DNA of 64,000 nt from Candidatus Flemingiibacterium sp. Its GTDB lineage: Bacteria; Bacillota; Clostridia; Oscillospirales; CAG-272. Both the position numbers and the translations under genes were made by a program. Positions 10,467-42,152 of this stretch are shown here, in pieces (position 1 is the first letter of the stretch; each line of letters opens with the position of its first letter). The stretch is taken from the NCBI GenBank assembly GCA_045636265.1, contig JAZTXD010000078.1, forward strand, positions 66,967 to 130,966. Reading direction: 5' to 3'. Below the pieces are notes generated by a model. The model worked only from the letters and a program-made list of their open reading frames with translations. It ran no database searches and was not told where the DNA came from.

Positions 10467-10498
10467 TAATATAATAAATCACATCATCGGAGGTGCCT

Positions 10499-11506: not shown

Positions 11507-11519
11507 AGGAGAACACAAA

Positions 11520-18024: not shown

Positions 18025-19188
18025 TTAATCTAAGCTCGGGATGATAAGATTTTGACCGATATATATCTTATTTACATCGGAAATGCCGTTTAGAGCCATT
18101 ATTATCCTGTAGTTTGATAGGTAGTCCAAGCCGTTCTTGATGCAAATTGAAGACAAAGAGTCTCCTGCTTCGACGGTATACATGATGAAGTCAATACTGT
18201 TTTCACTTTGAGAAGGCATATCGGTGCTTGAATTATCCTGTTGTTGTTCGATATAACTTTTTAATTCAGTTAGCAGAATCTCTTGGTTTTCCAATTCGAT
18301 CTCATGATTTTCCAATTTGCTCAATAGATCTGCAGCCGTAGTTTTATCTGAACTATCAAGAATTCCATCAATAAAATAACTTTGTAAAGTTGTTATTTCA
18401 GCACCCTGTCTTTCAATTATATCTCTTTGTGCATCTAATGCTTCATTAAAGTCTGAAACAATCTCATTTTGTTTATCAATACGTTCCTGATAGTCTTTAT
18501 ATAATGAAATCAAGGAAATCCCCATAATTAGCGATATGACACTTAATATAGATACAACAGAAATTAGCGCCTTATTTGAGTTCCGCTTTGGCTGGACTAT
18601 CTCTTTTTTGATTTGTTCAATCTTAATTGGTTTGCCCACATCGTCATAGACATAGTACCCTTTGAGTTTTTCAATTTTTCCGTTTTTCCATTGGAAGAAT
18701 CCACGAATATTTTGAATCGGGTCAATTACATAGGCAATCTGGAATGGAAGATTAAAGAAATTCTCTTGGATAAACATGTCGTAATTTGACAAGAAAATTC
18801 CGTAGTTTGGATGCGTATGCTGCCAACCGATTATCTTCTTGTCCGGATACAAACGCTCGTGTTCCGAATGAATGTAGTCCCATGTCTCATGGGTAAAAGT
18901 AAGGGTGGAGGCAGAGGCGTCCGTGTATTTGGCTTCAACAAAGTTAGAGATTATCACATTTGTTTTTCCGAGCTCTTGACAGTAATCACCGAGGAGGATA
19001 CTGCCAAGTTCTTTGCTTGTGTCTGAAGCTGACAATTTTTCAAGTGCCTTGTAAATATCCTGTTTGATATATACCTTCACATCATCATTCTCAATTTCTC
19101 CGAAAGTCAAGAAATTCATAGGAAGTTGAACACTGCCAGTATCTTCTGTTTTTTCTTCTCCAAATTCTATTTCGAAATTCCTATCCAC
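18025..19188 (-). CDS. membrane-anchored JAB/JAMM (MPN+) metallopeptidase with extracytoplasmic coiled coil and C-terminal LysM domain
   Basis: IIGWQHTHPNYGIFLSNYD (HxH-x7-S-x2-D), one TM (ALISVVSILSVISLIMGISLISL), LysM YTVEAGDSLSSICIKNG...IYIGQNLIIP. GTG start 7 nt after GGAGG. Confidence 0.85.
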   Translation of the reverse strand: MDRNFEIEFGEEKTEDTGSVQLPMNFLTFGEIENDDVKVYIKQDIYKALEKLSASDTSKELGSILLGDYCQELGKTNVIISNFVEAKYTDASASTLTFTHETWDYIHSEHERLYPDKKIIGWQHTHPNYGIFLSNYDMFIQENFFNLPFQIAYVIDPIQNIRGFFQWKNGKIEKLKGYYVYDDVGKPIKIEQIKKEIVQPKRNSNKALISVVSILSVISLIMGISLISLYKDYQERIDKQNEIVSDFNEALDAQRDIIERQGAEITTLQSYFIDGILDSSDKTTAADLLSKLENHEIELENQEILLTELKSYIEQQQDNSSTDMPSQSENSIDFIMYTVEAGDSLSSICIKNGLDYLSNYRIIMALNGISDVNKIYIGQNLIIPSLD

Positions 19189-19200
19189 TATATTACCTCC

Positions 19201-20097
19201 TTATACAAACAGTATCGCAGTTAACAATGCATATCCAATAAGCGTAAGAACAGTAGCAGTAGTATTTACACCGCAATTTTTCAGAATAAACTGCGTTTTA
19301 TACGGCTCGCTCATGGTTTTAGCTTGATTGGCTTTGTTTTCAAGGAATTTCATATAAATATCGTTTCCAAAAACGCCAAGGACAATATACCCTGCAAACA
19401 AGAGCAACGAAAGAAAAACGGAACCAATTAGTGATAGCAAAAACGCCACTCCAAGAAGACCCGCACCATAACCATACATTTTTCGGTATATCATCCAATA
19501 AGGCGTAACCAAAAAAGCTGCCCAGTTCCACGATGTATTCTTGTTGTTTGATTTTAATTCTCGAAATTTTGGGATATAGTATTCCGCCTTAATTCCGATA
19601 AGCTGTTGAACATCATAATCAATGACGGTGCTTTGCTGTGATTGATAGCTATTATACCCATTAGAGTTATAATTGTTTGACGAATCAACATAGGAATAAA
19701 GATTTGTGCTTGCAGGATTTACTCGTGTATAAGCTATGGCCTGATGCTCTTGTTCAAAGCCCGTTGTAAGCCTATTGCCACACTTAGAACAAAACGAAGA
19801 AGAAGCATTGCTTTGTGCTCCGCATTTCGTGCAGTAAACCACACTGGATGGCGTATCATTTCTCCTTACGTCATCATAATTCATGTGGTTTGTGGTAACA
19901 GATGTAATAGTATCATCTGCAGACTTTATTGTACCAAGGCAGCCGAAAGTAGTACAGCCTTGATTTTCAACCCAACAATCTTTGTGGTGTGGCATATCGC
20001 ACTCGCTACAAACAACTATCGCATCATTAGACTTAAATTCGGTTTTGCAGAAAGGACAAATCTTGCCGGTATAATCATTCACCGATATTTCCTCCAT
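19201..20097 (-). CDS. RING/PHD-type (C4HC3) zinc-finger + zinc-ribbon protein with C-terminal multi-TM DUF2628-like domain (E3-like, paralog 3)
   Basis: CPFC-x12-CSEC-x3-HH-x2-C-x6-C-x4-C, then CTKCG-x10-CSKCG, then NWAAFLVTPYWMIYRKMYGYG. ATG 20097 is preceded by GGAGG. The track's longer ORF to 20313 is the alternate frame of the neighbour's repeat. Confidence 0.8.
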   Translation of the reverse strand: MEEISVNDYTGKICPFCKTEFKSNDAIVVCSECDMPHHKDCWVENQGCTTFGCLGTIKSADDTITSVTTNHMNYDDVRRNDTPSSVVYCTKCGAQSNASSSFCSKCGNRLTTGFEQEHQAIAYTRVNPASTNLYSYVDSSNNYNSNGYNSYQSQQSTVIDYDVQQLIGIKAEYYIPKFRELKSNNKNTSWNWAAFLVTPYWMIYRKMYGYGAGLLGVAFLLSLIGSVFLSLLLFAGYIVLGVFGNDIYMKFLENKANQAKTMSEPYKTQFILKNCGVNTTATVLTLIGYALLTAILFV

Positions 20098-21217
20098 CTT
20101 CGTTTGGTTCTTGGAGTGCATCATCTGTTGAAGCATTTGTTGAGTCATCTGTTGAAACATCTGCCGAGTCATCTGTCGAAGCGTCTGCCGAGTCATCTGT
20201 CGAAGCATCTGCTGAGTCATCTGTTGAAGCATCTGCTGAGTCATCCGTTGACTCGTCAGTTGCATCATCGTCAGAAGTGCTATTGTCAGAAGTGCTATTG
20301 TCAGAAGAATCATCTATTGTTTCGCCACCCGGTATAGTTGGCTCAGATTCTGGTTTAACAAAAATTCCCGCCTGGCTCAAAATGTCACTTAAATCTTCAA
20401 TTTGGCTGTTCAGTCCTTCGATTTCGGATGTTTGGGAAGAAATAAGCTGATGCATATATGCAAGACTTTGGTTTGCAGAGTCAACAAGTGTTCGCTGTTG
20501 GCTTTCAATTTTTTCAAGTTTGTTATTCGTTGAAATGTTGGAGAAAATCAAAAATACAACTGCAACGGAAAGGATAGCGAGTAGGATATTTTTTCCACTA
20601 AAAATTGTTGTATCTTCTTTTTGAACTACTTCATCATTCTCCACATCTACATCAATGTTTACACCGGTTTTATCATAAATGTAAAATCCTTTACACTTTT
20701 CGATTTTTCCGTTAATCCAGAAATAGAATCCCTCAATATTCTGGATTGGGTCAACTACGTAAGCAACTTGATGGTCCTCGTTAAAGAAATTTTGATGAAT
20801 AAATCTATCATATTCAGACAGAAAAATACCGAAGTCCGGATGCGTATGAATCCAACCTACAATTTTTTTGCCTTTATGCTTTTTTTCGATTTCTTTATGT
20901 ACATGCTCCCATGTTTCATGGGTGAACTTCAAAGTGGTGGGGGTTGAATCACAATGTTTAGCTTCAACAAAACCGCTAATTACAATATTAGTTTTTCCAA
21001 ATTCTTCAATTACCGAACCAACAAGCATACCGCCACTTTCGTTGGTAGTTTTATTCTCGGTAAAGTTATGAATCTCTTTGTACGCCTTTTGCGAAATATA
21101 TATGTTTTTGTTTTCTTCTACACGCTCGCCAATAGGGAGAATGTTCTGGGGCAGTACGTTCTCCGGCATTTCTGTTGCAATATTCTTTTTTATTTTGTTT
21201 TTTGCTTTCTTAGCCAT
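20075..21217 (-). CDS. membrane-anchored JAB/JAMM metallopeptidase with coiled coil and acidic STDDSADA-repeat tail
   Basis: ESGGMLVG...IVGWIHTHPDFGIFLSEYD, one TM, 8-aa tandem repeats at the C-terminus. ATG 21217 follows GGGAG. Confidence 0.85.
   Translation of the reverse strand: MAKKAKNKIKKNIATEMPENVLPQNILPIGERVEENKNIYISQKAYKEIHNFTENKTTNESGGMLVGSVIEEFGKTNIVISGFVEAKHCDSTPTTLKFTHETWEHVHKEIEKKHKGKKIVGWIHTHPDFGIFLSEYDRFIHQNFFNEDHQVAYVVDPIQNIEGFYFWINGKIEKCKGFYIYDKTGVNIDVDVENDEVVQKEDTTIFSGKNILLAILSVAVVFLIFSNISTNNKLEKIESQQRTLVDSANQSLAYMHQLISSQTSEIEGLNSQIEDLSDILSQAGIFVKPESEPTIPGGETIDDSSDNSTSDNSTSDDDATDESTDDSADASTDDSADASTDDSADASTDDSADVSTDDSTNASTDDALQEPNEDGGNIGE
20121..20300. repeat. coding tandem repeat: 6 x 24 nt (20121-20264) then 2 x 15 nt (20271-20300)
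   Basis: Units TCATCTGTTGAAGCATCTGCTGAG and variants, read directly from the sequence. Confidence 0.9.
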
Positions 21218-21222
21218 CTTTC

Positions 21223-22116
21223 TTACTCCCATACATCAATATCGAAATCCGTTCTTTCCCTCGGATCATATTGTAATGTAATATTTTTCTTTTTTTGATA
21301 TATTAACAAAACAGCAAACACGATATTTCCAATTAAAGATACTCCTGCAATGAAGAACGCAACATAAGTAACCATAGGAAGCTGCTCGTTATCGTAGTAA
21401 TCAGTTTTGTTTTCTTCGTTTTCATTTTCTGCCGTATAAGGCAGAGTTACTTCTGGCACTTCGATGTTTTGCAAAACATTTCCGTTTGTGTTTAACTCAA
21501 TTCCAAGAGATATAAGATAACTGCAAATCCTTGTTATCGGAATTGCCAGACCAATCCCTTCACTATCAAACATTTTTAATGTATTCATTCCAAGAACTTC
21601 GCCAGCATCATTAAGCAAGGGGCCGCCGCTATTACCCTCATTGATAGGGGCATCAATTTGAATATAAGAACGTTTTCCGATTATTCTCTCCTTAGCGGAA
21701 ACGCCACCTTTGGTAAGGGTATAGGCCATGCCCTTGGGGGCACCTATAGCATAAATATCATCACCAGTTTTCATTGTTGAAAGATCAGCAACCGTCAAAA
21801 AAGGAAAACTGACATCATTCACAACCAAAACAGCTATATCTTCATCCTCATTTATACCAAGAACAGATGCACCATACTCAGTACCTCCATAAGTGACGAC
21901 AGAGATACGTTTAGTGTTTTCAATAACGTGTGCGTTAGTTACTATGCAGTTTTCACCGATAGCAAACCCGCTGCCCATAGAATTCCCAGAGTATATGACG
22001 AAAACTGATTCATAAGCGTTTTCGGCTTCAAAGCCTATTGCACTCACGGATAAAGCGGAGGCGAATACTACCGCCACCACAATCATCAAAGAGAGTAATC
22101 CTCTGATTGGTTTCAC
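21223..22116 (-). CDS. exported trypsin-like (S1/HtrA-type) serine protease with C-terminal membrane anchor
   Basis: Signal peptide ...ALSVSA. Catalytic triad contexts TNAHV, DIAVL and GNSGGPL. C-terminal TM. GTG start after AGGAGG. Confidence 0.85.
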   Translation of the reverse strand: MKPIRGLLSLMIVVAVVFASALSVSAIGFEAENAYESVFVIYSGNSMGSGFAIGENCIVTNAHVIENTKRISVVTYGGTEYGASVLGINEDEDIAVLVVNDVSFPFLTVADLSTMKTGDDIYAIGAPKGMAYTLTKGGVSAKERIIGKRSYIQIDAPINEGNSGGPLLNDAGEVLGMNTLKMFDSEGIGLAIPITRICSYLISLGIELNTNGNVLQNIEVPEVTLPYTAENENEENKTDYYDNEQLPMVTYVAFFIAGVSLIGNIVFAVLLIYQKKKNITLQYDPRERTDFDIDVWE

Positions 22117-22140: not shown

Positions 22141-24030
22141 TTATTTAGTATTAAACACCAGCACAGAGTTGCCTATTGCAATTGCATCACCTTGACGCAA
22201 TACATGGCGTACTGTTTTCTGACCATTTACGATGGTGCCCATAGGAGTACCGCAGTCGGTCAAAACATACTTGCTACCTTCAAGCTTGATGTCGCAGTGA
22301 TGCGGACCGACAAGCTTATCTTTGAACAGTACAATGGTGTTTTTGCCGTTGTTACCAATGCTCGTGGTTCCTGCAAATACAAGATACTCTTTACCTTCAA
22401 ATTCACCACGGATAACTTTAAGCCATGCAGCTTTTGCAAACTGTTCAAGCAGACCGACACCTACGCCAATCAAAATGCCCATCACACCAATGGCAACACC
22501 TCTGGCAACGACGTCATTGGGGATAACATCGCAAACATAGTTAAACAGGAAACCGCCGATAAAGGCTCCCACCAAACCACCAAGAGCGCAGAAAAGTATA
22601 CGCTTCTTTTCCGGCTTTATTAAGCCGGCCGATACGCCAATACCGAGACCCATGATAGCCCAGCCCAAGCCGCGAATGAGTGCAGCTGTGAAATCGGCAG
22701 GATCATCTCCCAAAAGTTCAGCGTACATCCACTGTGCCAAGTAACCACTTATAAATCCGATAACAAGTGATACACAAGCGCCGATCAGTGCATATTTGAT
22801 TGCCTTTTCTTTAGAACCATAGTAGATTCCTTCACCAATTCCAAGGAACAATCCAATAAAGAGTGCAATAGCAGCAGACCAAAGAGCTGTACTTGTTCTT
22901 GTAACAATCGCCAGCGCATCCCAAAGGTCATCCTCATCTTCATCGTAAGTGTTCTCATACACTTCATAGAGAGCGTCATTTGCTTTATCATCATACGCTG
23001 AATAATCTTCAAGATAATCTATTGCTTTGTCTGATGCTCCATTTGAGAGCCAATCAGTGAAAGTGTTGCTTGCCTCGGCGTTTTTGTTTTCTTTTTTGCA
23101 ATACGCTTCAAATTCGTCGTATGCTTTCTCCCATGCAGAATCGGCTTTTGCTGTATATTCGAGATACTCAACAAATTCTGAACGTCCACAAAGTCTGGCG
23201 GCAGTCACGTCACTTGTAAGATTAGTTTCTGTTAACTCAGAAACACCAAATCCAATAAATGAACCTATTAAAGCCCAAAGTAAACCTTTGACTAAAATAG
23301 TCTTGAAATTCAGCTTGTTACTCTTTACTGTTCCACCGTGAGATACCGTTTGCATTCTCTGAGCAGTGGGGACAAACTCTATCCCGGCAAGTTCTTCAGC
23401 GGTAATCTCGAAGTCGTTCTCGTCAGTTTTTTCCAACACAGCAACAGGAGCAACGGTGGTATCGGGAGCAATATCTGTAGGAACTTCGGGGGCAGTAGTC
23501 GTATCTTCCATTACTGAGCCATCATCCCCAAACAAGTCAATCTCAACAACTTCTTTTGAAGAAGCATAGTCAGCGATATATAGGTCTATATTCCCAACCG
23601 GGAACAAGTGCTTGTTTTCCATAGCCCATTGAGCTGCGTCCGCAGACAGAGGGCTATAAGAGTTCCATGACTTGTACTGAATCATATCACCTATATTTAT
23701 GATAATATCGCTCAAAGATTCTCCCGCACCCCAGATATCTCCAATGCAAATTTGTCCATCACGGAAGTTTGGATGCCAAATGGGTGTAAGAATTTTACAG
23801 ATAGGTTTATAACGAGGATAATCAGCATGGAGAGTTATTTCAATTTCATGCCTACCTAAAGTTTCAATTCTACCGTCTTCTAAGAGGTAAATACCGTTCA
23901 CAAAATATGTAACGTGATATTTTTCCGGCAGCTCATCACCAATGGGCGTAACGATAATATTTTTGTGACCAGTAAAGTCTTTTTTTACTTGCTCATAGTC
24001 AGAGGCAAGTCGTCTCATTCTTGCAGTCAT
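22141..24030 (-). CDS. E2 (UBC-fold) ubiquitin-conjugating-enzyme-like domain fused to a polytopic membrane region and a C-terminal FHA-like domain
   Basis: N-terminus RLASDYEQVKKDF...YPRYKPICKILTPIWHPNFRDGQICIGDIW...SPLSADAAQW (HPN 86-88, Cys95). About 6 predicted TM helices. C-terminus IGNNGKNTIVL...HHCDI...YVLTDCGTPMGTIVNGQK...GDAIAIGNSVLVF. Confidence 0.85.
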   Translation of the reverse strand: MTARMRRLASDYEQVKKDFTGHKNIIVTPIGDELPEKYHVTYFVNGIYLLEDGRIETLGRHEIEITLHADYPRYKPICKILTPIWHPNFRDGQICIGDIWGAGESLSDIIINIGDMIQYKSWNSYSPLSADAAQWAMENKHLFPVGNIDLYIADYASSKEVVEIDLFGDDGSVMEDTTTAPEVPTDIAPDTTVAPVAVLEKTDENDFEITAEELAGIEFVPTAQRMQTVSHGGTVKSNKLNFKTILVKGLLWALIGSFIGFGVSELTETNLTSDVTAARLCGRSEFVEYLEYTAKADSAWEKAYDEFEAYCKKENKNAEASNTFTDWLSNGASDKAIDYLEDYSAYDDKANDALYEVYENTYDEDEDDLWDALAIVTRTSTALWSAAIALFIGLFLGIGEGIYYGSKEKAIKYALIGACVSLVIGFISGYLAQWMYAELLGDDPADFTAALIRGLGWAIMGLGIGVSAGLIKPEKKRILFCALGGLVGAFIGGFLFNYVCDVIPNDVVARGVAIGVMGILIGVGVGLLEQFAKAAWLKVIRGEFEGKEYLVFAGTTSIGNNGKNTIVLFKDKLVGPHHCDIKLEGSKYVLTDCGTPMGTIVNGQKTVRHVLRQGDAIAIGNSVLVFNTK

Positions 24031-24047: not shown

Positions 24048-24521
24048 TTAATCATTTCCTTTAGTAGGCTTTACGACATTGATTTTAAGCGCAGATATAC
24101 AAGCAATGAGAAGTCCCACGCAAATATAAATTCCCTTACTAATCTGAGCAGCCGCAATTTTGCCACCTCTGAGACATGCCTCAATAATGTAATTATAGGC
24201 ATAGCCACCAACATATTCAGTCATAGTGTATGAACTGATGTAATCGGATGGGGCACTGATACCAATACCAACAATTAACATAATAATTCCAACAGCTAAA
24301 CAGCCGACCGGAATAACATTGCTCATTATAGTTTTTTTGACATCAATTTTATCCTTCTGTCCGTTTTTTAGTTTGATGTTCATGTTGTACTGCTGGATGG
24401 GAGTAGGTTCAGATGCCGCCTGTGTATTGCATCTCTCGCCACATTGGGGACAAAAAGATGCATTTATATCAAGTTCTGTTCCGCATTTGAAACAGAACTT
24501 TTTGTTTGCTTCAGTATTCAT
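24048..24521 (-). CDS. zinc-ribbon membrane protein
   Basis: CFKCG-x10-CPQCG followed by 2-3 TM segments. Confidence 0.65.
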   Translation of the reverse strand: MNTEANKKFCFKCGTELDINASFCPQCGERCNTQAASEPTPIQQYNMNIKLKNGQKDKIDVKKTIMSNVIPVGCLAVGIIMLIVGIGISAPSDYISSYTMTEYVGGYAYNYIIEACLRGGKIAAAQISKGIYICVGLLIACISALKINVVKPTKGND

Positions 24522-24538: not shown

Positions 24539-25726
24539 TTACATCCCTTCAAAAACTTCTGCTTCATCTGATGTAAATTCATAATATGTAGTATTCGCAC
24601 CAACCCTGCCACCAATAATGTGTAACACTGGAATACCAATATCAAAAGGCGTTTTATCAAGGAAATCTTCTTCGCCTTTAATGGAATGAACACTATCAAA
24701 AGTCATTTGATTGCCACATTTTGGACAAGTCAGCATATTGCCTTTGAGCTTATGAACCGGCGTGAATAAATCCTTACATTCGCCGCAAGAGCATTTAGCA
24801 GTCGTAGCAATGTCCCTATCAAAATCGAGAACAGCTTTTTCTCCGAGTTCATTTCGGATTTCTGCTAAAATTTCTTTGAGAGTGATTGTTTTAACAGACC
24901 AGGGCTTTTCTACAATCTTTTCGTATGTATCATGGCTCATGCAGTCCTCTTTACGTTGATACTCCACGACATAGGAATCATGTGTTAAACCATTAAATAC
25001 ATATCCCTTGCCTGCAAGAGTAGGAAGATTTCTGTCTGCATGGAGCAACTTCAGCATTTCTTGCACTTGGATGCCTGCGATAATCGATGAAGAAGTTGGA
25101 GTGGTAGGAATTTTACCCTCCGCCATCTGCTCGTGGGTAAGCAAAGCGCAGGATTTGCGCTTGTTAATCAGCATCCAGTCCGTTTCGGTCATGGTGCATT
25201 CATAGCAAGCCCCCTGCCCGGGGATGAAGACGCGGGCAAAGCCGTTAAGCGCTTCGATAGCGCCATCAATCCAAGGTCGATCCACCTTGTAGCATGACTG
25301 GTTAATGGAAAGACGTGCCTCACGGTTATCCAAACCACCCAAAACCACATTCATTCTGCGGAACACACCCAAGCCAACATCATCAATAATGTTAGCAATA
25401 AACGCCTTAGCCTTGACATCAGGATTCATTTCCTTAGCCCGCTCGGCAGCAACTTCCGCCTTATAACGGCCCACATCACGCGCTCTGTAAAGAACTGATC
25501 GAGTGAGGTTGGTGCTTTCAATGGCATCCATATCGTATACAAGGATTCTACCGATGCCCAACAAAGCCAGATTCTTAATCAATTCATTTCCGATAGCACC
25601 AGCGCCTACGACCATGATAGTTGCATTTTTTAGCCGCTCCTGATCCCACCAGGGAATCAGCCGAAGACGAGCGTAGCGGTCTTCTTCAAAGTCAGAGCTT
25701 TTCAGCTCAAGGGTATCATTCTCCAT
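24539..25726 (-). CDS. E1-like adenylyltransferase (ThiF/MoeB/UBA family)
   Basis: VVGAGAIGNE nucleotide loop, NLTRS, GLDNREAR, CYEC and CSCGEC...CPKCG zinc motifs, candidate crossover-loop Cys in KRKSCALL. Confidence 0.9.
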   Translation of the reverse strand: MENDTLELKSSDFEEDRYARLRLIPWWDQERLKNATIMVVGAGAIGNELIKNLALLGIGRILVYDMDAIESTNLTRSVLYRARDVGRYKAEVAAERAKEMNPDVKAKAFIANIIDDVGLGVFRRMNVVLGGLDNREARLSINQSCYKVDRPWIDGAIEALNGFARVFIPGQGACYECTMTETDWMLINKRKSCALLTHEQMAEGKIPTTPTSSSIIAGIQVQEMLKLLHADRNLPTLAGKGYVFNGLTHDSYVVEYQRKEDCMSHDTYEKIVEKPWSVKTITLKEILAEIRNELGEKAVLDFDRDIATTAKCSCGECKDLFTPVHKLKGNMLTCPKCGNQMTFDSVHSIKGEEDFLDKTPFDIGIPVLHIIGGRVGANTTYYEFTSDEAEVFEGM

Positions 25727-26001
25727 TACATTGCACCTGCTGTAATTTCAGGCTGAAGACGAAGAACATCACCGTCTTTGATACCAGCTTCGGCAAGTGT
25801 TTGAGCTTCAAGCAGCTGCCTGCCGGTGACCTTATGGATAAACTTATAGCTAATGGGGTTGCCATCGGGACCGACAGAGGGGAGTTTAATTTTCTCCACA
25901 AGCTTTACCATGATAATGCCGCACTTAATGTCGTCCGGCAGACCAACTTTCTGTTCTTTGTTGCCAGTAGCATCCACAATAATTACATTAACTTTTGCCA
26001 T
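25726..26001 (-). CDS. ubiquitin-like beta-grasp protein (Ubl)
   Basis: 91 aa. ...TLAEAGIKDGDVLRLQPEITAGAM* is the classic Ubl C-terminal pattern. Its stop overlaps the E1 start (ATGTAATGG). Confidence 0.75.
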   Translation of the reverse strand: MAKVNVIIVDATGNKEQKVGLPDDIKCGIIMVKLVEKIKLPSVGPDGNPISYKFIHKVTGRQLLEAQTLAEAGIKDGDVLRLQPEITAGAM

Positions 26002-26031: not shown

Positions 26032-26907
26032 TTAATCTAATAAGTTTTCGAGTGCTCTGTAGCAGGCGAGAAACTCATCAGTAATTTCGTTGTTATTATC
26101 ACTATATGAGTTGTAGTTGCCGGAAGGGTCTGTTGCAAGGCTGTAAAATTCTGTATACACGTTATACAAATCTTTTACTGCGTCACAGAGGTCTTCAATC
26201 TCATCTAAATCTTCTTCAGAAATATGTTCGGGAACTTTTTTGAGTTCAGAGTATAAGTCCTTCATTTGAGTGTCATACTCTCCAGCCTGGTCGATTTCAT
26301 CAGACTTATCAATCAACGCAAGCAAAATTGCAGTATCGATATCAGCTCCGTGCTTGTCTTCCCAAATGTTCTCATACCAATACTTCTGGACAGTATCGGC
26401 AATGTCTTCAAGATTAGCCCCGGCAGTTATAGACAAGGTAAGGAAATCTTCGACATTTTCAATGTACTCTTTCCTTGCTTCCTCAGCCTTCTTTTCACCT
26501 ATTGTTTTAGAAATGAAGAAACCGAGAGCAGCAACGACTACCAAAACAACTGCAATTACAATGGGGAGAGCTTTCGATTTTGCCTTTTTCTTTTCAATCC
26601 CCGTATTGAACTGGCTGATAGCAGTGTTGACATTAGTATCTACGGCCATGCCAACTTTTTGTCCACACTTAGAACAGAACTCCTGTCCGGCACCCAATGT
26701 AGCTCCGCAATTATTGCAGGCAGCAATAGGATTAGTTCCTTTTTCTTCGTAATGCTGCTCAGAGCAACCGAAAGTAGTGCACCCCTTGTTTTCTTCCCAA
26801 CACCCATCGTGGTGGGGAATGTTGCAAGCAGGGCATACTTTCACACCGTCTCCTTCTTTAATCTCCGTTTTGCAAAACGGACAAGTTTTTCCCACATAGT
26901 TTTCCAT
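26032..26907 (-). CDS. RING/PHD-type (C4HC3) zinc-finger + zinc-ribbon single-pass membrane protein (E3-like, paralog 2)
   Basis: CPFC-x12-CPAC-x3-HH-x2-C-x6-C-x4-C, CNNCG-x10-CSKCG, TM ALPIVIAVVLVVVAALGFFI, acidic helical C-terminal domain. Confidence 0.8.
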   Translation of the reverse strand: MENYVGKTCPFCKTEIKEGDGVKVCPACNIPHHDGCWEENKGCTTFGCSEQHYEEKGTNPIAACNNCGATLGAGQEFCSKCGQKVGMAVDTNVNTAISQFNTGIEKKKAKSKALPIVIAVVLVVVAALGFFISKTIGEKKAEEARKEYIENVEDFLTLSITAGANLEDIADTVQKYWYENIWEDKHGADIDTAILLALIDKSDEIDQAGEYDTQMKDLYSELKKVPEHISEEDLDEIEDLCDAVKDLYNVYTEFYSLATDPSGNYNSYSDNNNEITDEFLACYRALENLLD

Positions 26908-26932: not shown

Positions 26933-28153
26933 TTAGTCCCATTTATATTCAGAAACTTTACTTGTAATTTTCGAGTTCTGCTTCTTTACATTAGAAATAG
27001 CATTGTCTACACTTTTTTCCTTGGTATCTTTACTCGAATAATACGTTGAATAAGCAACGGAAGGCCGCTTATTTATGTAGTTGTGATAGTCTTCGTATTT
27101 TTTATACAGCTCATTTAATGAAGAATATAATTTCTTATATTCTTCAGGTGCGTGCTTCAGTTCCAGCATAATTAATTCCAACGCACTCATATTTTGGTTT
27201 GCTATAGAAAGAGAATTTTCGAAAGCTTGCGCAGTATCAGCATCTACTACATAAGTATAGCCGTTTGCATACCGTGACCAATAATAATAGACCATATAAG
27301 AAGAACCGCTGTAAAGCCTGGACATAGCAGTTGAAATATCAGCATCATAAAGATCGGTATACAAAAGCGTGTTGTATACACAACCGCCAAGCACTTTATC
27401 AAGGTCATATCCTCGCGAAATCAGAGCATATGCAATCTGAGCATCCGATAAATAATCGTTTTTTATCTCTGCGATCTTGCTTTCGCTGTCCGAAAAGCCT
27501 TCAAGTGAAAGAAGAATCTCAATTGCATCAAAATGATTGTTGTTTTCGAACAGCTTAATTGCATCATCATATTTTTCTTGTTTTATGGCATTTTCGCAAT
27601 TTATGATTTGTTCTTCGCTGTCCTTAAAACCTCCTAATTCCTTGAATAAACTAATCGCACTTTCGTAGTCGCCGTTGGTGTACATTTCCTTTGCTTCTTG
27701 ATATTTAGCATTCGGAGCAAAATATAAGAACCAAGAAACAACAATACCGGCAATAACAGCACACACGATAATCGGCAACCATATAGTCAAAAACCTTTTT
27801 TTCTTTTTCTTGGCATTTGTAATATTGCGATTGAATTCTTCTATCGAGCGGTTTGCCTCATGTGTAACCGCAGTGTTGTTGCCGCAAGATGGACAGAACA
27901 AATCTCCGTCATTAAATATTGCTCCGCAGATTGTACATTTCTTTTCTGTCATTATCGCGTTTTGCTCAACGCCTGTTGCAGGTTCGCCTTCCAAGGTGTT
28001 ATGCTGTGAACAGTTTGGCGAAGAACAGCCTTTGTTTTCTTCCCAACAACCGCTGTGATGGGGAATGTTGCAAGCAGGGCAGACTTTTACATTATCTTCC
28101 TCTTTGATTTCCGTTTTGCAAAACGGACAAATTTTCCCAATGTAGTTTCCCAT
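26933..28153 (-). CDS. RING/PHD-type (C4HC3) zinc-finger + zinc-ribbon single-pass membrane protein with TPR-like repeats (E3-like, paralog 1)
   Basis: Same Cys/His spacing. CTICG-x10-CPSCG. One TM. Repeats ...GDYESAISLFKELGGFKDSEE... and ...HFDAIEILLSLEGFSDSES... Confidence 0.8.
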   Translation of the reverse strand: MGNYIGKICPFCKTEIKEEDNVKVCPACNIPHHSGCWEENKGCSSPNCSQHNTLEGEPATGVEQNAIMTEKKCTICGAIFNDGDLFCPSCGNNTAVTHEANRSIEEFNRNITNAKKKKKRFLTIWLPIIVCAVIAGIVVSWFLYFAPNAKYQEAKEMYTNGDYESAISLFKELGGFKDSEEQIINCENAIKQEKYDDAIKLFENNNHFDAIEILLSLEGFSDSESKIAEIKNDYLSDAQIAYALISRGYDLDKVLGGCVYNTLLYTDLYDADISTAMSRLYSGSSYMVYYYWSRYANGYTYVVDADTAQAFENSLSIANQNMSALELIMLELKHAPEEYKKLYSSLNELYKKYEDYHNYINKRPSVAYSTYYSSKDTKEKSVDNAISNVKKQNSKITSKVSEYKWD

Positions 28154-28224
28154 GGAAATCCTCCTAAAGACAAACTTGTTTTATTGCTTAAGTCGCCCTG
28201 CGACATTATAACAATAGGTAGTGA

Positions 28225-28914
28225 TTACTTTAAATCATGCGGCAGACACATATCACACGGTTCATACTCGCCGTTTTCAAGCTCTTCAATCGTCATCCGA
28301 CGAATATTGTTTTTTCCCTTTACAAAAATGCATTTTTCTTCGTGATACTTATTTCCGGCTGAAGTCAAATAGTATTCGCCATAATAGTGGTGTTCCTTTT
28401 GAATGGCGTTAAATACTGTTAAACCGATTGCAGATACTATAAGCAGAGCGACTACAATGCTGACAACCTTTCTATGGCTCTTGATAGTATTGAGAGCTTT
28501 ACGACCAATACCGTTGCTTAAAATATAATGGGTAAATTCGTTCGCTTCATATTCCTCAACAACATCTTTTCCTATAACGGGATAGGAGGAAAGATGTCCA
28601 CAGTATATGTGCCCCTCCTCGTGAGCCAACACCAAGCGTTTTTCATCATCAGAAAGGTCTTCGTGCAAAAAAACGAGTCGCCGTTGCTTATCAGCAAAGG
28701 TAAAGCCTTTTGATTTGTCTATAGCTTCTTCAATACCCAATGCTTCAATTAACGTGGTTACGTTTTCATCATTGAATATATGGTTATATTCAATGATGGT
28801 ATATCCTTGCAACTTGATGATTCGACATAAATCTTCAAGTGTCACCTCATTCAAGTTATATTCGATGAGAAACGCTCTCGCTTTTGCTTTAATGTCATTC
28901 TTCATTGATATCAT
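28225..28914 (-). CDS. ImmA/IrrE-family zinc metallopeptidase with TM segment and C-terminal Cys-rich tail
   Basis: HEXXH motif in LVLAHEEGHIYCGH, TM VVSIVVALLIVSAIGLTVF, tail KYHEEKC...PCDMC. Confidence 0.8.
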   Translation of the reverse strand: MISMKNDIKAKARAFLIEYNLNEVTLEDLCRIIKLQGYTIIEYNHIFNDENVTTLIEALGIEEAIDKSKGFTFADKQRRLVFLHEDLSDDEKRLVLAHEEGHIYCGHLSSYPVIGKDVVEEYEANEFTHYILSNGIGRKALNTIKSHRKVVSIVVALLIVSAIGLTVFNAIQKEHHYYGEYYLTSAGNKYHEEKCIFVKGKNNIRRMTIEELENGEYEPCDMCLPHDLK

Positions 28915-29452
28915 TTTTTTGGATAGACCTTAATGCTTTCATAGCTTCAACATCCTTGGAAGAAGGTATAGCATTCAACAAGCTGATTCCGCCAAAAGAT
29001 TTTACGACGGCTTCACTGGGGAGTTGTGTGCACCTCGCATACTCTACCATAATCATTGAATTGATTGCTTGTTTGGCTTTCTCATCCAGGTATTCAAGAA
29101 TATCCTCTGCTTGATTTCCCAAAATTGAGCTGAGACCGAAACTGGAATAGTCCATACCATCATTAAACCGAATAACTAACTCCTTGGGAAATAAGGAAAG
29201 CATACGCAGCATTTTATGTGTTTTTTGATTGTGATCAAAAAACAACACTAAAGAAAGATATGTGCTCCACGACATTCTTCTGACTTTACGTTCAATCGCA
29301 CTGTAAGTTTGGCGAGAAACGCCTATAAGATTTGCCAATTCTTCTTGTGATATTTCCGCGTGTGTTCTTAGTGCAGGCAAGTTTGGCGTAAGTGTTGCAA
29401 TAAACTCGTCCTTTTCTGCATCAGTCAGCAACCATTTTGATACAGATTCCAT
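28895..29452 (-). CDS. XRE-family HTH regulator (first gene of the Ubl operon)
   Basis: ISQEELANLIGVSRQTYSAIERKVRRMSWSTY. Confidence 0.8.
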   Translation of the reverse strand: MESVSKWLLTDAEKDEFIATLTPNLPALRTHAEISQEELANLIGVSRQTYSAIERKVRRMSWSTYLSLVLFFDHNQKTHKMLRMLSLFPKELVIRFNDGMDYSSFGLSSILGNQAEDILEYLDEKAKQAINSMIMVEYARCTQLPSEAVVKSFGGISLLNAIPSSKDVEAMKALRSIQKNDINEE

Positions 29453-29540: not shown

Positions 29541-29569
29541 ATTATACACCATGTTGTCAGATTTGTCAA
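29541..29569 (-). promoter_or_regulatory. perfect consensus sigma-A promoter TTGACA-17-TATAAT for the Ubl operon, with a TTGACAA-ATC-TGACAA direct half-site repeat over the -35
   Basis: The reverse strand reads TTGACAaatctgacaacatggtgTATAAT, ~90 nt upstream of the XRE start. Confidence 0.65.
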
Positions 29570-30303: not shown

Positions 30304-31836
30304 TCAGTGAATACAAAGAAAAATCGGGAATCGTAAGATTCCCGATCCTGGTCTAACACCTTTAGTTATATCCGAACTTTTTAGATCTGAAAACAGAACT
30401 GTTTTTGCATCACGTTTGTAGTTGAATGTGAAAAGAAGACGGTCGTTATAAACGAATATGGCATTGACGAAGGTATCGATCAATCGTTTGCGCTGTTCCA
30501 ACACTGTTATGTCGTATTCGCGCATACGCTCGAACCAAAATCTCACTTGTTCCTCGGTAAGTAGTGGACGCTTCATCTTTTCTTTAATGATCTCTGTTTC
30601 AATGTTGCGGTGCTTTTCTTCAAGCGCATCCAATCGTTTCTTGGTCATAGGGGTAATGATACCTTGTTCAATGGCATTCAGCATATTGTTGATTGCCTTT
30701 TTCGCTTCGGCAAGCTCGTGTTCAAGATGGGGAATAACAGTGTTTTCTTTTTGCTGAAACTCCATAAACATATGAACAATATCGTCAATCAGGTTATCAT
30801 CGTGTAGTGCCTTTCTTATTTCCTCCACGACAATATCCTCGATCCAAGCCTTGCGTAGAGGTTTCATATGACAACCTGTATGTTTTTTTGCGCTGACACA
30901 CTTGTAATAATGATACACCTGCTTGGTTGCACTTGTGCCGGATTCTCCCACCATTAAGGACTTACATTCACCACAGAACAATTTTGTAGTGAGAATATAA
31001 TCGTCTTCTGCTTTGTGACGAGCGGGAGCTTTTTTGTTTTTAGCGATTTTCTCTTGAACTCGGTCAAACAAATCTTTTGGAACGATAGCAGGGATACCAT
31101 CGGGGACAACGATATCACGATAAATGTATTCGCCTATATAACGTCGATTTTTTAAAAGACTTGCCACGTTGTCTATACTGATACGACCGCCGCGCGTATT
31201 CTTGACTTCGTGCTGATTCAGTATAGCGGCAATCTCACTCATTGTCATACCTTCATCATAGTTTTGATATGCTTCTAAAACAAAAGGTGCGGTAAGCGGA
31301 TCGATATGATAATTTTGTTCCTTGTCGGTCGTATATCCGATAGGAAGTGTGCCGCCGTTATATTTGCATTTCAGCGCGTTCTCGGTGTGTCCGCGAATAA
31401 CCTTTTCGGATAGATCGGCAGAGTAGTATTCCGCCATACCTTCAAGTACGGATTCCAAAAGAATACCTTCAGAGCCTTCGGAGATAGATTCTGTCGCTGA
31501 CATAACCTTAACGCCATTGCGCTTTAGAACCGCTTTGTAGTTTGCGGAGTCGTAACGGTTACGTGCAAAACGGTCGAGTTTCCATACGATGGCTAAATCG
31601 AAGTTGCGCTTTGCGCTGTCCTTAATCATCTTTTGAAAATCGGGGCGTTTATCTGTCTTAGCAGAGAAGGCACGGTCAATATACTCACCAACTACCGAGA
31701 TATCATTCTTTCGCGCAAAGGCATAACACTCGCGAAGCTGACCTTCAATAGACTCTTCACGCTGATTTTCACTTGAATAACGCGCATATATCACGGCTCG
31801 CATAGAACTCTCGTTGTTTATTTTCTTCTTTGTCAT
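30304..31836 (-). CDS. large serine recombinase
   Basis: AVIYARYSSENQ catalytic-Ser motif, resolvase domain, recombinase domain, Cys-rich zinc ribbon CGEC...YYKC, C-terminal coiled coil. Confidence 0.9.
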   Translation of the reverse strand: MTKKKINNESSMRAVIYARYSSENQREESIEGQLRECYAFARKNDISVVGEYIDRAFSAKTDKRPDFQKMIKDSAKRNFDLAIVWKLDRFARNRYDSANYKAVLKRNGVKVMSATESISEGSEGILLESVLEGMAEYYSADLSEKVIRGHTENALKCKYNGGTLPIGYTTDKEQNYHIDPLTAPFVLEAYQNYDEGMTMSEIAAILNQHEVKNTRGGRISIDNVASLLKNRRYIGEYIYRDIVVPDGIPAIVPKDLFDRVQEKIAKNKKAPARHKAEDDYILTTKLFCGECKSLMVGESGTSATKQVYHYYKCVSAKKHTGCHMKPLRKAWIEDIVVEEIRKALHDDNLIDDIVHMFMEFQQKENTVIPHLEHELAEAKKAINNMLNAIEQGIITPMTKKRLDALEEKHRNIETEIIKEKMKRPLLTEEQVRFWFERMREYDITVLEQRKRLIDTFVNAIFVYNDRLLFTFNYKRDAKTVLFSDLKSSDITKGVRPGSGILRFPIFLCIH

Positions 31837-31901
31837 GATATCACATCCTTTCTGCCAAGAGTATAACAGATACTAAATTTTCTTGCAAATGTGCGAGATA
31901 A

Positions 31902-32774
31902 TTATGCCGAAAATTTTTCAGTAATTTGTTTTTTGATTCTCTCAATACGCTTTCTGATACCGCTTGCATTGGCATATCCGTAATCTTTTGCAAGCGCAGT
32001 ATAGGTCTCTCCATTGGCATGGCGCACCAAGAGCTCACGATCTTCGGGTGAAAGTAAAGCAAGACATTGTTCAAGATACACTTTGTCGATGACCTCGGAG
32101 GTAACGTCTGTTGCATCATCCAAAGGATATGGTGTATATTGACCGCTTGCATCTTTGGGCCCACCGCGCTCAATAGATACCTTTTCTACAAGCTGACCGC
32201 CGCTCATGTGCTCAATTTTGCGCTTAGCGTTTTGCAGAGAGTAATTGTTAGGCTTGCCATGATTGTAGTCCGAATAGTCGGGCAACTCTTTGAAAATCTC
32301 TGCGATCTGAGGAAGATTCATCAAATAAGCGTTTATATCCCACTCGCGTTTCAAAAGCTCATCAATATTATCCTCGGTATATCCCTTGTCTGCCATTGCT
32401 TTGATCAGCGCATCACGAACCTCGGGTGTGCCTTGGATAAGGGTAGTGTAATAAGTAACGGTATCGTAAAACGCTTTATAAAACAACATCAGCGGATTAT
32501 CTTCGCCCGAAAAGTGTGATGGCGGAAACGCCAAACTCAAATCGTGGCGCGTATCCATACTTGTCGCTTTAACCATCTGCACAAGATCCTTAAGATATTT
32601 TACCACCTCTGGCGGCATTTCTTTAAGAGGAAGGGAGACTGCGATATTAGATATGTCAAGCGCATCGTCTCTGTTTTTATCTACGACCTCCTGCACAGTT
32701 CCGTTACCAATCGTGTTTACAAGCGCAGTTACAAATTCATCCGCACTTTGTTGAATAGTTCTTTCTTCTGCCAA
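31902..32774 (-). CDS. hypothetical protein with C-terminal sigma-70 region-4-like HTH
   Basis: LLSPEDRELLVRHANGETYTALAKDYGYANASGIRKRIERI. Confidence 0.55.
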   Translation of the reverse strand: MAEERTIQQSADEFVTALVNTIGNGTVQEVVDKNRDDALDISNIAVSLPLKEMPPEVVKYLKDLVQMVKATSMDTRHDLSLAFPPSHFSGEDNPLMLFYKAFYDTVTYYTTLIQGTPEVRDALIKAMADKGYTEDNIDELLKREWDINAYLMNLPQIAEIFKELPDYSDYNHGKPNNYSLQNAKRKIEHMSGGQLVEKVSIERGGPKDASGQYTPYPLDDATDVTSEVIDKVYLEQCLALLSPEDRELLVRHANGETYTALAKDYGYANASGIRKRIERIKKQITEKFSA

Positions 32775-32779
32775 TAGTT

Positions 32780-33394
32780 TTACCTCCTGTTAATTCTTTT
32801 CAAAACGTGCTCTGCCACGCCTTGAATGATAATGTTATCGTAGATCTGATTTGGATAGCTCTCCTTATCTTCATTCTCTGCAATCAATATAACCTTGCGC
32901 TTGGAGCGATCATAGGATAGTGTTTTGAGAGTAGCCGAGTCATCGATCAATGCAACTACGATATCTCCCTCATTAGCGGTGTTCTGCTTACGGATCAACA
33001 CTAAGTCGCCGCTATCGATTCCTGCGTTAATCATAGAATGACCTTTTGCTCGAAGCCAAAAGTATTCGCCTTTGCCGATGAAATCGGTTGGAATCGGTAA
33101 AGAATCATCGTACTGCTCCTCTGCATAGATCGGAGAGCCGCAGGCGATATCACCGCTGATTGGTGCGTGGAACTTGCCTTGCAGTTCTTCAATGTAGGGT
33201 GTAATGATGTGTCGCCCGTCAAAATACAGTTTGTCCATTTCTGTCATACGGTGCAGATATTTGTGTACCGTTCCCACCGCCAAAGAGAGGCTTCGCGAGA
33301 TCTCCGCAATCGTCGGAGAGTAGCTGTTTTCGTTGTAATATTCGTCTACAAAGGCGATAATCCTCTGCATCGTTTCTTCGCTTAAATATCGCAT
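32780..33394 (-). CDS. LexA-like repressor (wHTH + S24 peptidase)
   Basis: N-terminal PTIAEISRSLSLAVGTVHKYL. Cleavage-region analog GDIACGSPI. GHSM (Ser) and ATLKTL (Lys). Confidence 0.8.
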   Translation of the reverse strand: MRYLSEETMQRIIAFVDEYYNENSYSPTIAEISRSLSLAVGTVHKYLHRMTEMDKLYFDGRHIITPYIEELQGKFHAPISGDIACGSPIYAEEQYDDSLPIPTDFIGKGEYFWLRAKGHSMINAGIDSGDLVLIRKQNTANEGDIVVALIDDSATLKTLSYDRSKRKVILIAENEDKESYPNQIYDNIIIQGVAEHVLKRINRR

Positions 33395-33667: not shown

Positions 33668-33880
33668 ATGGCTGCAAGTTATAAAAAACTCTGGAAATTG
33701 CTGATTGACCGTGATATGAAGAAGAAAGATCTTCGTGAACTGACTAAACTCAGCTCCTCAACCATTGCCAAAATGACAAAGAATGAACCCGTTAGTACCG
33801 ACGTCCTTATTAAAATCTGCTCGGTACTTAATTGTGATGTCGGAGATATTATGGAGATCGTTCCCGATAGTAAGGAGTGA
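33668..33880 (+). CDS. small XRE-family HTH protein (controller-like)
   Basis: LWKLLIDRDMKKKDLRELTKLSSSTIAKMTKNEPVSTDVLIKICSVLNCDVGDIMEIV. 4-nt overlap with the next gene. Confidence 0.8.
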   Translation: MAASYKKLWKLLIDRDMKKKDLRELTKLSSSTIAKMTKNEPVSTDVLIKICSVLNCDVGDIMEIVPDSKE

Positions 33881-37503: not shown

Positions 37504-37520
37504 AATAAGGAGACGTTGAA

Positions 37521-41387: not shown

Positions 41388-41422
41388 CAAAAGGTAAATT
41401 TCAATGAAAGGATAACAAAACA

Positions 41423-42121: not shown

Positions 42122-42152
42122 GCGATACTATTGCTTAAAAGGAGGTGGACAA

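Follow-up and report, generated by a model that had tools for sequence, protein, structure and literature searches.

Operons that bring together a ubiquitin-like protein (Ubl), an activating enzyme (E1), a conjugating enzyme (E2), a RING ligase (E3) and a JAB peptidase are the closest described relatives of the system considered here. Burroughs, Iyer and Aravind reportedly predicted the type with a Prok-RING_1 ligase in silico (Mol Biosyst, 2011), and the abstract of that work is said to raise the possibility that such systems conjugate YukD-like Ubls. Hennell James et al. (2017, PMC5654768) reconstituted an archaeal version of the Ubl/E1/E2/RING/JAB system, that of Caldiarchaeum subterraneum, in vitro. 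We analysed a stretch of 64,000 nucleotides from Candidatus Flemingiibacterium sp. (contig JAZTXD010000078.1, positions 66,967 to 130,966; hereafter the window), in which a 12-gene operon, all on the minus strand, has in its middle a gene for a 629-residue protein (22141-24030) with an E2 (UBC) domain, a transmembrane (TM) region and an FHA domain. Our analysis indicates that this protein is probably a dedicated, membrane-embedded E2 of a self-contained eukaryote-type Ubl cascade on the inner side of the cytoplasmic membrane.

The system belongs to the kind already predicted in silico. The operon in the window has the same gene set as the predicted and archaeal operons (Gly-ended Ubl, E1, E2 with HPN and Cys, small RING E3 and JAB/Rpn11-like peptidase), and its E1 and E2 are eukaryote-like, as they are there. 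It differs from them in that all components except the E1 and the Ubl are membrane-anchored, in that the E2 continues into six TM helices and an FHA domain, and in its set of three RINGs and two JABs, which carry extracytoplasmic domains, together with an HtrA-like protease.

The E2 domain

The open reading frame (ORF) of the E2 starts with an ATG, about 10 nt downstream of an AAGGAGG Shine-Dalgarno sequence. Its catalytic domain covers residues 1-152 (23575-24030, minus strand, as for all operon features below), as delimited by Pfam, phmmer, conservation, AlphaFold2 (AF2) modelling and Foldseek. The Pfam model UQ_con matched residues 59-143 (E 1e-8), its 35.3 bits exceeding the cut-off of 27; this match and the two Pfam matches of the FHA region given below lie above or near the respective cut-offs, and all three are far beyond chance. 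A phmmer comparison with sequences of the PDB returned eukaryotic E2-C, Rad6, Ubc13 and E2-25K, among others, with E values from 5e-7 to 1e-3 overall and from 5e-7 to 1e-4 for the first three. In the alignment with E2-C, the segment WHPNF-RDGQICIG was paired with WHPNVDQSGNICLD, which places C95 on the position of the catalytic Cys. The HPN triad is formed by residues 86-88 (codons 23767-23775), and the Cys follows seven residues past N88 (codon 23746-23748).

The catalytic residues H86, P87, N88 and C95 were invariant in all 61 full-length homologues, which were drawn from 63 genome loci. In 36 more diverse relatives of the E2 domain (37-96% identity), the invariant positions were R7, Y38, H61, Y71, P72, P76, H86, P87, N88, C95, D98, W100, N123, P127, A132 and A133, which correspond to the well-known YPxxPP, HPN, Cys and SPL signatures of the family. 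The AF2 model of residues 1-160, built on the alignment of the diverse relatives, had a mean predicted local distance difference test score (pLDDT) of 91.2 and a predicted template modelling score (pTM) of 0.88, and consisted of a helix at residues 3-19, a strand meander and helices at residues 106-117 and 130-138. The best 50 Foldseek matches of this model in the PDB were all eukaryotic E2s, including Ubc5, Rad6, UbcH5, Ubc13, E2-C, Ube2g2 and Cdc34, with TM-scores of 0.6-0.69. Thus, the domain has the alpha/beta fold of the UBC/E2 superfamily (PF00179) and its HPN motif followed by a Cys 7-8 residues further on.

A preliminary description of this stretch, made from the sequence alone, had proposed an N-terminal UBC domain with an HPN triad and a Cys seven residues later, and both proposals agree with our results. 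It had also judged the domain to be closer to canonical UBCs than to the E2s of the Bil and CBASS systems. No Bil or Cap2 E2 was found among the best Foldseek matches, and the E2/BilB profiles of PADLOC gave no significant match. Since, in addition, the best matches were eukaryotic and the UQ_con cut-off was passed, we also regard the E2 as more canonical than those of Bil and CBASS.

Membrane region and linker

The E2 domain is followed by an acidic cytoplasmic linker of about 90 residues (residues 153-241, 23308-23574), modelled as disordered with a pLDDT below 50. The mean identity of the stretch between the E2 domain and TM1 was 52% among the 61 homologues. Within it, we identified a short linear motif, NDFEITAEELAGIEFVPTAQRMQ (residues 205-227, 23350-23418), in which D206, F207, I209, L214, R225 and Q227 were conserved in at least 98% of these homologues. 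The motif NDFEITAEELAGIEFVPTAQRMQ may serve the FHA domain, the E1 or one of the RINGs as a docking site.

Hydropathy analysis and the full-length AF2 model (pLDDT 73) agreed on six TM helices, as had been estimated in the preliminary description. TM1 spans residues 242-266 (23233-23307), and TM2 to TM6 lie within residues 379-532 (22435-22896): TM2 at about residues 381-403, TM3 at 407-439, TM4 at 446-470, TM5 at 475-502 and TM6 at 507-532. Segments rich in Lys and Arg were found before TM1 (KSNKLNFK), in the turns between TM2 and TM3 (SKEKAIK) and between TM4 and TM5 (KPEKKR), and after TM6; the TM3-4 and TM5-6 turns are acidic. Following the positive-inside pattern of charges, both termini are placed inside the cell, so that the E2 and FHA domains are both cytoplasmic.

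Between TM1 and TM2 lies an extracytoplasmic loop (residues 267-378, 22897-23232), delimited with the AF2 model and the identity profile. It had been described as an acidic loop of about 130 residues; the acidic character is borne out (30 Asp/Glu against 10 Lys/Arg over residues 265-392), but the length is about 112 residues. The loop was modelled as a helical bundle with a pLDDT of 85-95 and was the least conserved part of the protein, with a mean identity of 31% versus 88% for the E2 and FHA domains. To judge from this pattern of conservation, it appears to be a surface-exposed, fast-evolving domain.

The operon and its conservation

The preliminary description left undescribed the setting in which the E2 gene lies, namely a complete Ubl/E1/E2/RING/JAB operon, and it is this setting that explains what the E2 is for. 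Upstream of the E2 gene, the operon encodes a YukD-family Ubl of 91 residues (25726-26001; Pfam YukD, E 4e-12), which ends in ...LRLQPEITAG-AM, and an E1 of 395 residues with a ThiF-type adenylating fold (24539-25726; Pfam ThiF, E 1e-54). The best PDB matches of the E1 were the active adenylation domains of eukaryotic Uba1, UBA7, UBA3 and UBA2 (E 4e-31 to 1e-24); those to ThiF and MoeB were weaker (1e-17 to 1e-19), and MccB also ranked behind the eukaryotic E1s. The Cys in the crossover loop of the E1, Cys193, was invariant in its homologues. Between the E1 and E2 genes lies a gene for a membrane protein with a Zn-ribbon and two TM helices (24048-24521), homologues of which are fused to the C-terminus of the Ubl in other loci.

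Bacterial Prok-RING_1 (PF14446) proteins are described in Pfam as carrying TM helices, and the three encoded in the operon all have a Prok-RING_1 domain and a Zn-ribbon. RING_A (26032-26907) continues with a TM helix and an extracytoplasmic helical domain, RING_B (26933-28153; Pfam and hydropathy) with a TM helix and an extracytoplasmic TPR-like domain, and RING_C (19201-20097) with a DUF2628 membrane domain. Of the two JAMM peptidases, JAB1 (20075-21232) is deubiquitinase-like (HTHPx7SxxD) and has a TM helix and an acidic repeat tail; JAB2 (18025-19188) has a TM helix, a coiled coil and a peptidoglycan-binding LysM domain. The JAMM motif HxHx7SxxD is intact in both. An HtrA/DegP-like serine protease with conserved catalytic motifs, an N-terminal signal anchor and a C-terminal TM helix is encoded directly downstream of the E2 (21223-22116). 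At the upstream end, there are genes for an XRE-type helix-turn-helix (HTH) regulator (28895-29452) and for an ImmA/IrrE-like M78 metallopeptidase with a TM helix (28225-28914). Hydropathy analysis gave at least one TM segment for every product of the operon except the E1 and the Ubl.

Some details of the DNA itself are worth recording. At its C-terminus, JAB1 carries acidic DDSADAST repeats, which are encoded by a 24-nt tandem repeat of 5.5 copies (20121-20251). The long form of the RING_C ORF (19201-20313) overlaps this repeat region in another frame; as RING_C homologues have about 295 residues, translation probably begins at 20097, with M73 of the long form. A perfect sigma-70 consensus (12/12, TTGACA-17-TATAAT) lies upstream of the HTH gene (29541-29569, minus strand), and a second promoter-like site with an extended -10 element lies just before RING_B (28205-28234, minus strand). 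The two sites suggest that the regulators and the conjugation genes are under separate control.

For the E2, at least 799 homologous clusters were found at 90% identity, and the best 120 of them were all full length, 74-88% identical and of the same three domains. The E2 was present in 63 species-level genomes, almost all of gut or rumen Clostridia (Oscillospiraceae, Acutalibacteraceae, Ruminococcaceae, Lachnospiraceae and Christensenellaceae), among them the cultured Massiliimalia massiliensis and Lachnospiraceae bacterium MC2017. Gene order was conserved across the related loci. Counting co-occurrence only where the flank was long enough, we found both the E1 and the Ubl beside the E2 in 52 of 52 loci, JABs in 45 of 45, the protease in 41 of 45, the downstream RING in 40 of 45, the upstream RING in 36 of 40, and the HTH and M78 genes upstream of the operon in 16-19 of 40. 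As in the operon type predicted earlier, Ubl, E1, E2, Prok-RING E3 and JAB are thus encoded in one operon and conserved together in related loci. Identity to the proteins of the window was 86-98% for the Ubl, 64-93% for the E1 and 51-82% for the E2, and fell to 35-70% for the accessory genes. In another lineage, the extracytoplasmic domain of the RING is an Ig-like Big_2 domain, which indicates that extracytoplasmic domains have been swapped from one lineage to another.

The C-terminus of the Ubl was conserved in an unusual manner. The end LRLQPEITAG was common to all 52 homologues; the protein stops exactly at AG in 10 of the 52 loci, and most Ubls carry 1-9 variable residues after it (AM in the window). 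In 13 loci (L003, L006, L019, L020, L022-L024, L026, L035, L055-L057 and L060), the Ubl is fused in frame after EITAG, either to a Zn-ribbon-2TM protein homologous to the one at 24048-24521 or to a TM-anchored extracytoplasmic domain. The invariant EITAG, followed by 0-9 residues or by a fused protein, supplies the conjugatable C-terminal Gly expected of a Ubl in such an operon, whether exposed directly or after processing. A near-invariant, Gly-ended beta-grasp protein with disposable tails and fusions bears what looks like the signature of a modifier that is conjugated and processed by a deubiquitinase (DUB), and the fusions to membrane proteins resemble the ubiquitin fusion precursors of eukaryotes.

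A proposed membrane-bound conjugation cascade

From the domain identities and folds, the invariance of the catalytic residues, the topology, the co-occurrence in the operon and the precursor-like ends of the Ubl, we infer a series of biochemical steps, their targets and a biological role. First, a JAB/JAMM peptidase would trim the precursor of the YukD-type Ubl after EITAG, thereby removing the short tail or the fused membrane protein. The Uba1-like E1 would then adenylate the C-terminal Gly of the Ubl and take the Ubl onto Cys193, from which it would be handed to C95 of the E2, with Asn88 of the HPN triad forming the oxyanion hole. Three membrane-anchored RING E3s, each with a cytoplasmic RING and Zn-ribbon and a distinct extracytoplasmic domain, would bind the E2 charged with Ubl and steer its transfer to lysines of targets close to the membrane. 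The two membrane-anchored JABs could reverse the modification as well. As for the role, we favour envelope-linked signalling or conflict over housekeeping. We also considered an E2 that acts as a host-directed effector, and ruled it out on account of the six TM helices and the possession of its own E1 and Ubl.

Several observations weigh against such a cascade. The fit of the E2 model to eukaryotic E2 structures was moderate (TM-score of about 0.65, root-mean-square deviation (rmsd) of 3-5 Å), and its C-terminal helices appear shortened. Neither a reader of the tag nor a degradation machine (AAA+ ATPase, proteasome) was recognisable in the operon, the system is absent from the PADLOC models, and full-text literature searches turned up no experiments on this bacterial operon. 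The flanks (144 ORFs from about 50 loci) were heterogeneous and gave no clear defence-island signal. Finally, there are catalytically dead relatives: P0137 (L064) and P0139 (L065:864-2621) have the E2-6TM-FHA architecture, with HPN changed to HPS or HPL and the Cys lost, and would, by sequence, be similar to ubiquitin E2 variants (UEV-like). P0139, the one of the two whose contig extends far enough to show its neighbours, is an orphan: it lies among genes for an isochorismatase, LacI and a Mur ligase, and neither an E1 nor a Ubl is encoded close by. The existence of these dead relatives implies that the scaffold has some function independent of conjugation.

A possible role, to which we give less credence than to the cascade itself, is that of an anti-phage or conflict system carried by a mobile element, like Bil or CBASS, in which the extracytoplasmic domains would sense and conjugation would disable the invader or trigger a response. 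This fits with the patchy distribution across families of Clostridia at 51-82% identity, with some contigs binned to unrelated taxa, and with a GC content below that of the left flank (a drop at 18-30 kb). The operon adjoins, in the window, a serine recombinase, a LexA-like repressor, a restriction-modification island, a relaxase and ParB; an ImmR/ImmA-like HTH and M78 pair lies upstream in about 40% of the loci, the extracytoplasmic domains diverge fast, and uncharacterised Ubl/E1/E2/RING operons are expected, according to the literature, to serve in defence. However, the operon gave no match to the E2/Bil models of PADLOC, and the flanks in about 50 loci consisted mostly of ordinary genes, with recombinases accounting for 5 and ResIII for 2 of the 144 ORFs and with ABC transporters as the commonest class. 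No copies of the E2 were found in PLSDB plasmids, GenBank phages or IMG/VR, which rules out phage or plasmid carriage so far as these collections go. Given the heterogeneous flanks, we do not claim an association with defence islands.

As regards the remainder of the window, the mobile-element genes lie at 30304-33394 and 48158-50445 and encode a large serine recombinase, an S24 LexA-like repressor, a MobA/VirD2 relaxase and ParB. Taken with the drop in GC content at 18-30 kb, they suggest that the operon is situated in or beside an integrative mobilisable element. The restriction-modification/defence island (33877-45978) encodes a 1208-residue SNF2 helicase with a C-terminal YAcAr/SLOG domain, a DUF4391 protein, an N6/N4 DNA methylase and a 1036-residue Res-helicase with an endonuclease domain. 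On the other side of the operon, an ADP-ribosylglycohydrolase gene is followed by one for a WYL/WCX regulator (10493-12500), with a gene for a 667-residue HD-domain protein nearby (8388-10391), and these genes may form a separate small regulatory or defence module.

A more specific version of the signalling role, which we put forward as a rather speculative one, is a pathway of receptor-like RINGs, in which their interchangeable sensors and the polytopic E2 would turn envelope events into conjugation of the near-invariant YukD-type Ubl at the inner membrane face, with the phospho-independent FHA domain as a built-in, non-covalent receptor of the Ubl or of a partner. Just as tentatively, the sensors would be the TPR-like, helical, Ig-like Big_2 and DUF2628 domains on single-pass RING E3s, to which the E2 would add its fast-evolving surface loop. 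If true, this would be a prokaryotic counterpart of the membrane-embedded ubiquitination of eukaryotes, as in endoplasmic reticulum-associated degradation (ERAD) and receptor ubiquitination.

The FHA domain and the 5TM-FHA module

The cytoplasmic C-terminus of the protein (residues 533-629, 22144-22434) is a non-canonical FHA domain according to Pfam, phmmer, Foldseek and the alignments. The Pfam FHA model matched residues 556-620 (E 1.6e-11), and the FHA-like Yop-YscD_cpl model matched residues 538-627. In Foldseek, the domain matched the FHA domains of GarA and OdhI with a TM-score of 0.94 and an rmsd of 1.2 Å, and the range over the FHA domains of GarA, OdhI and FhaA was 0.9-0.96 with an rmsd of about 1 Å. 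The GarA/OdhI type was the best match by sequence too (E 1e-8), which makes these regulators the closest to the FHA domain of the window by both sequence and structure. The C-terminal FHA module of the preliminary description is thereby confirmed, with the 11-stranded beta-sandwich of the family (PF00498); the Arg, Ser and Asn that bind phosphothreonine (pThr) in this family were not retained.

In the alignment with GarA, all three pThr contacts were replaced: the Arg by N560, the Ser of SxxH by G575 and the Asn of NGT by M597. Two of these replacements, those of Arg and Ser, had been noticed previously. The NG turn (VNGQ) that had been considered as retained proved to be a second, structural NG motif, distinct from the NGT whose Asn contacts pThr. 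Across the 61 homologues, the Arg position was occupied by Asn in 57 and Ser in 4, and never by Arg, while the Ser position was occupied by Gly in 41, Ala in 15, Ser in 4 and Glu in 1. The pThr triad was absent from all 61 homologues and from all 77 relatives of the module discussed below.

These relatives were sorted from an exhaustive search of 1.8 billion representatives, which returned a few full-length E2-TM-FHA proteins, 48 clusters that matched the E2 domain only (with the E2 alone or with other C-termini) and at least 71 clusters, at 50% identity, that matched residues 375-629 alone, that is TM2-6 and the FHA domain, without an E2. The E2-less proteins have other N-termini, for example a second FHA domain or HEAT repeats. 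One of them (L069:6448-9440) lies amid the housekeeping genes cdaA, ybbR and glmM, with no ubiquitin-like genes nearby. None of the 77 aligned members of this five-TM (5TM)-FHA module had the full R/S/N triad, so that degeneracy of the FHA characterises the module as a whole and did not arise by recent loss. Nearly invariant among the 77 were E529, K533, W536, G559, H578 and N602, and the junction between TM6 and the FHA domain is rigidly conserved. The stand-alone 5TM-FHA proteins are thus a widespread family of membrane proteins with a non-canonical FHA throughout, and we know of no described function for them. It appears that the module predates the fusion, and that the E2 was grafted onto it by means of an extra TM helix and the extracellular bundle. 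The FHA domain of the window therefore differs from GarA and OdhI in the replaced Arg, Ser and Asn, as well as in being joined to a five-TM bundle via the conserved E529/K533/W536 junction.

Since all three pThr contacts are lost here and throughout the parent 5TM-FHA family, the FHA domain is most likely phospho-independent; to judge by the alignments, it would most likely be an interaction surface inherited with the 5TM module. In the proposed cascade, the 5TM-FHA part would accordingly be an older, independent module that holds the E2 at the membrane, and its FHA domain would serve as a phospho-independent surface for protein binding rather than as a reader of pThr.

As for the partner of this surface, it is conceivable, although unlikely, that the FHA domain is a non-covalent receptor for the YukD-type Ubl of the operon, which would allow chains to be built or keep the Ubl at the membrane. 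The Ubl of the operon belongs to the YukD family, and in the cryo-EM structure of the type VII secretion system (T7SSb) of B. subtilis, YukD is clasped non-covalently between the non-canonical FHA domains of the ATPase YukB and the DUF domain (PMC12637312). The apparent phospho-independence of the FHA domain would suit such a function, and no elements of the system are more conserved than FHA and Ubl. On the other hand, the 5TM-FHA module occurs in many genomes without a Ubl, E1 or E2 nearby, as in the cdaA-ybbR-glmM locus, which indicates that the ancestral partner of the FHA domain was not a Ubl. Besides, the domain is nearer to the GarA type than to the EssC or YscD types by both sequence and structure.

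The preliminary description had noted that no Ser/Thr kinase gene lies in the operon and had hence treated the ligand of the FHA domain as a question of a missing kinase. The absence of a kinase is correct: Pfam identified none in the operon, and a crude regular-expression check found no Hanks catalytic-loop motif in any frame of the window. The premise of a pThr reader is not upheld, given the lost contacts. We consider it very unlikely that the domain is a working pThr reader through which the E2 is linked to a Hanks-type Ser/Thr kinase from another part of the genome, for instance by binding, in the manner of GarA and OdhI, a phosphorylated Thr in the Thr-rich linker of the E2 or in a substrate. 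In favour of such a reader, the nearest matches by sequence and structure (GarA, OdhI, FhaA) are canonical pThr-binding FHA domains, and the linker is rich in Thr and has a conserved I-T-x-E-E-L motif. There is also a distant relative, P0223 (L066:633-3149; also in L067 and L068), in which the same type of E2 is joined to Cys-rich repeats, a canonical FHA domain (GR and SRRH kept) and a Ser/Thr kinase; its gene is preceded by a Prok-RING gene and followed by one for a PP2C phosphatase, and P0223 appears to be an E2 wired directly to phospho-signalling. In the FHA domain of the window, by contrast, every phosphate-contacting residue is replaced, with Arg in 0 and Ser in 4 of the 61 homologues and the triad in none of the 77 members of the parent module, and the kinase itself was found neither in the operon by Pfam nor in the window by the motif check.

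A non-catalytic, UEV-like scaffold, whose UBC domain would only bind Ubl or RING partners while the chemistry takes place elsewhere, has precedents in P0137 and the orphan P0139, but it is extremely improbable for the protein of the window, as H86, P87, N88 and C95 do not vary in the 61 family members, the same four and D98, W100, N123 and P127 do not vary in the 36 diverse relatives, and E1 and Ubl always accompany the E2 of this family.

Comparison with known systems

We return to the membrane-embedded, catalytically competent E2 that we consider probable, and to how its operon compares with systems studied to date. In agreement with the preliminary description, which knew of no characterised membrane-embedded E2-FHA fusion, we found none characterised by experiment in full-text literature searches. 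So far as checked, the additions to the predicted picture are the 5TM-FHA module with its uniformly degenerate FHA, the fusions of the Ubl to membrane proteins, the UEV-like variants and the variants with E2, FHA and kinase.

The operon shares with Bil, CBASS Cap2/Cap3 and Bub the common bacterial logic of E1, E2, Ubl and JAB, in which the Ubl is conjugated to proteins. It differs from them in its RING E3s and in having neither an E1-E2 fusion nor a CD-NTase. With the Bil (BilABCD) models of PADLOC, the E2 gave no BilB match and the Ubl gave no match; the E1 (BilD, 1.5e-7) and JAB (BilC, 3e-3) gave weak, generic matches only. Unlike in type II CBASS, the E1 and the E2 are each encoded by a gene of their own, and a CD-NTase was not found. 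Among the families of NCBIfam and PADLOC, there was no family-level match for the E2, the Ubl or the RINGs. In Bub, the nucleophiles are a Ser in the E2 and a Tyr in the E1, the chemistry is that of an oxyester, and the protease belongs to DUF6527 (PMC11601596); in the operon of the window, the Cys of the E2 is kept and no DUF6527 match was obtained. None of the experimentally characterised bacterial Ubl systems that we found (Bil, CBASS-Cap2 and Bub) uses a RING E3.

Another parallel is provided by the core of T7SSb, in which, as in this operon, a YukD-family Ubl is found in Firmicutes alongside a non-canonical, membrane-proximal FHA domain. YukD of T7SS is not conjugated (PMC1779556, PMC12637312). 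The Ubl of the window differs from it in having E1, E2, E3 and DUB partners and a predicted, processed Gly end. A link to T7SS was ruled out, since no EssC, YukC or WXG100 genes are present: neither the FtsK/EssC/YukB ATPase nor the YukC pseudokinase nor WXG100 proteins were found in the operon or its flanks. If the tentative pathway of receptor-like RINGs is true, this would be the first YukD-family protein used as a covalent tag.

The E2 itself compares best with the class-I E2s of eukaryotes (UbcH5/Ubc4, Rad6, Ubc13 and E2-C), which were the source of all the best matches by sequence and structure and with which it has in common the UBC fold, the YPxxPP motif, HPN, the Cys and the downstream SPL. 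Identity to them is about 20-25%, at a TM-score of about 0.65; the spacing between the Asn and the Cys is one residue shorter, and the C-terminal helices appear shortened. Membrane E2s of eukaryotes such as Ubc6 have a single tail anchor. The E2 of the window, in contrast to the class-I E2s, is embedded in the membrane by a polytopic domain of its own. As far as sequences can tell, its operon would carry the full eukaryotic logic, with a processed Ubl, a Uba1-like E1, an E2 with HPN and Cys, RING E3s and JAMM DUBs, and the extreme conservation of the Ubl and its fusion precursors are hallmarks of ubiquitin. The system could be used to test what E2-RING chemistry and ubiquitin precursor processing looked like before eukaryotes, whether YukD-family proteins act as covalent tags and what role a membrane-embedded E2 has in a bacterium.

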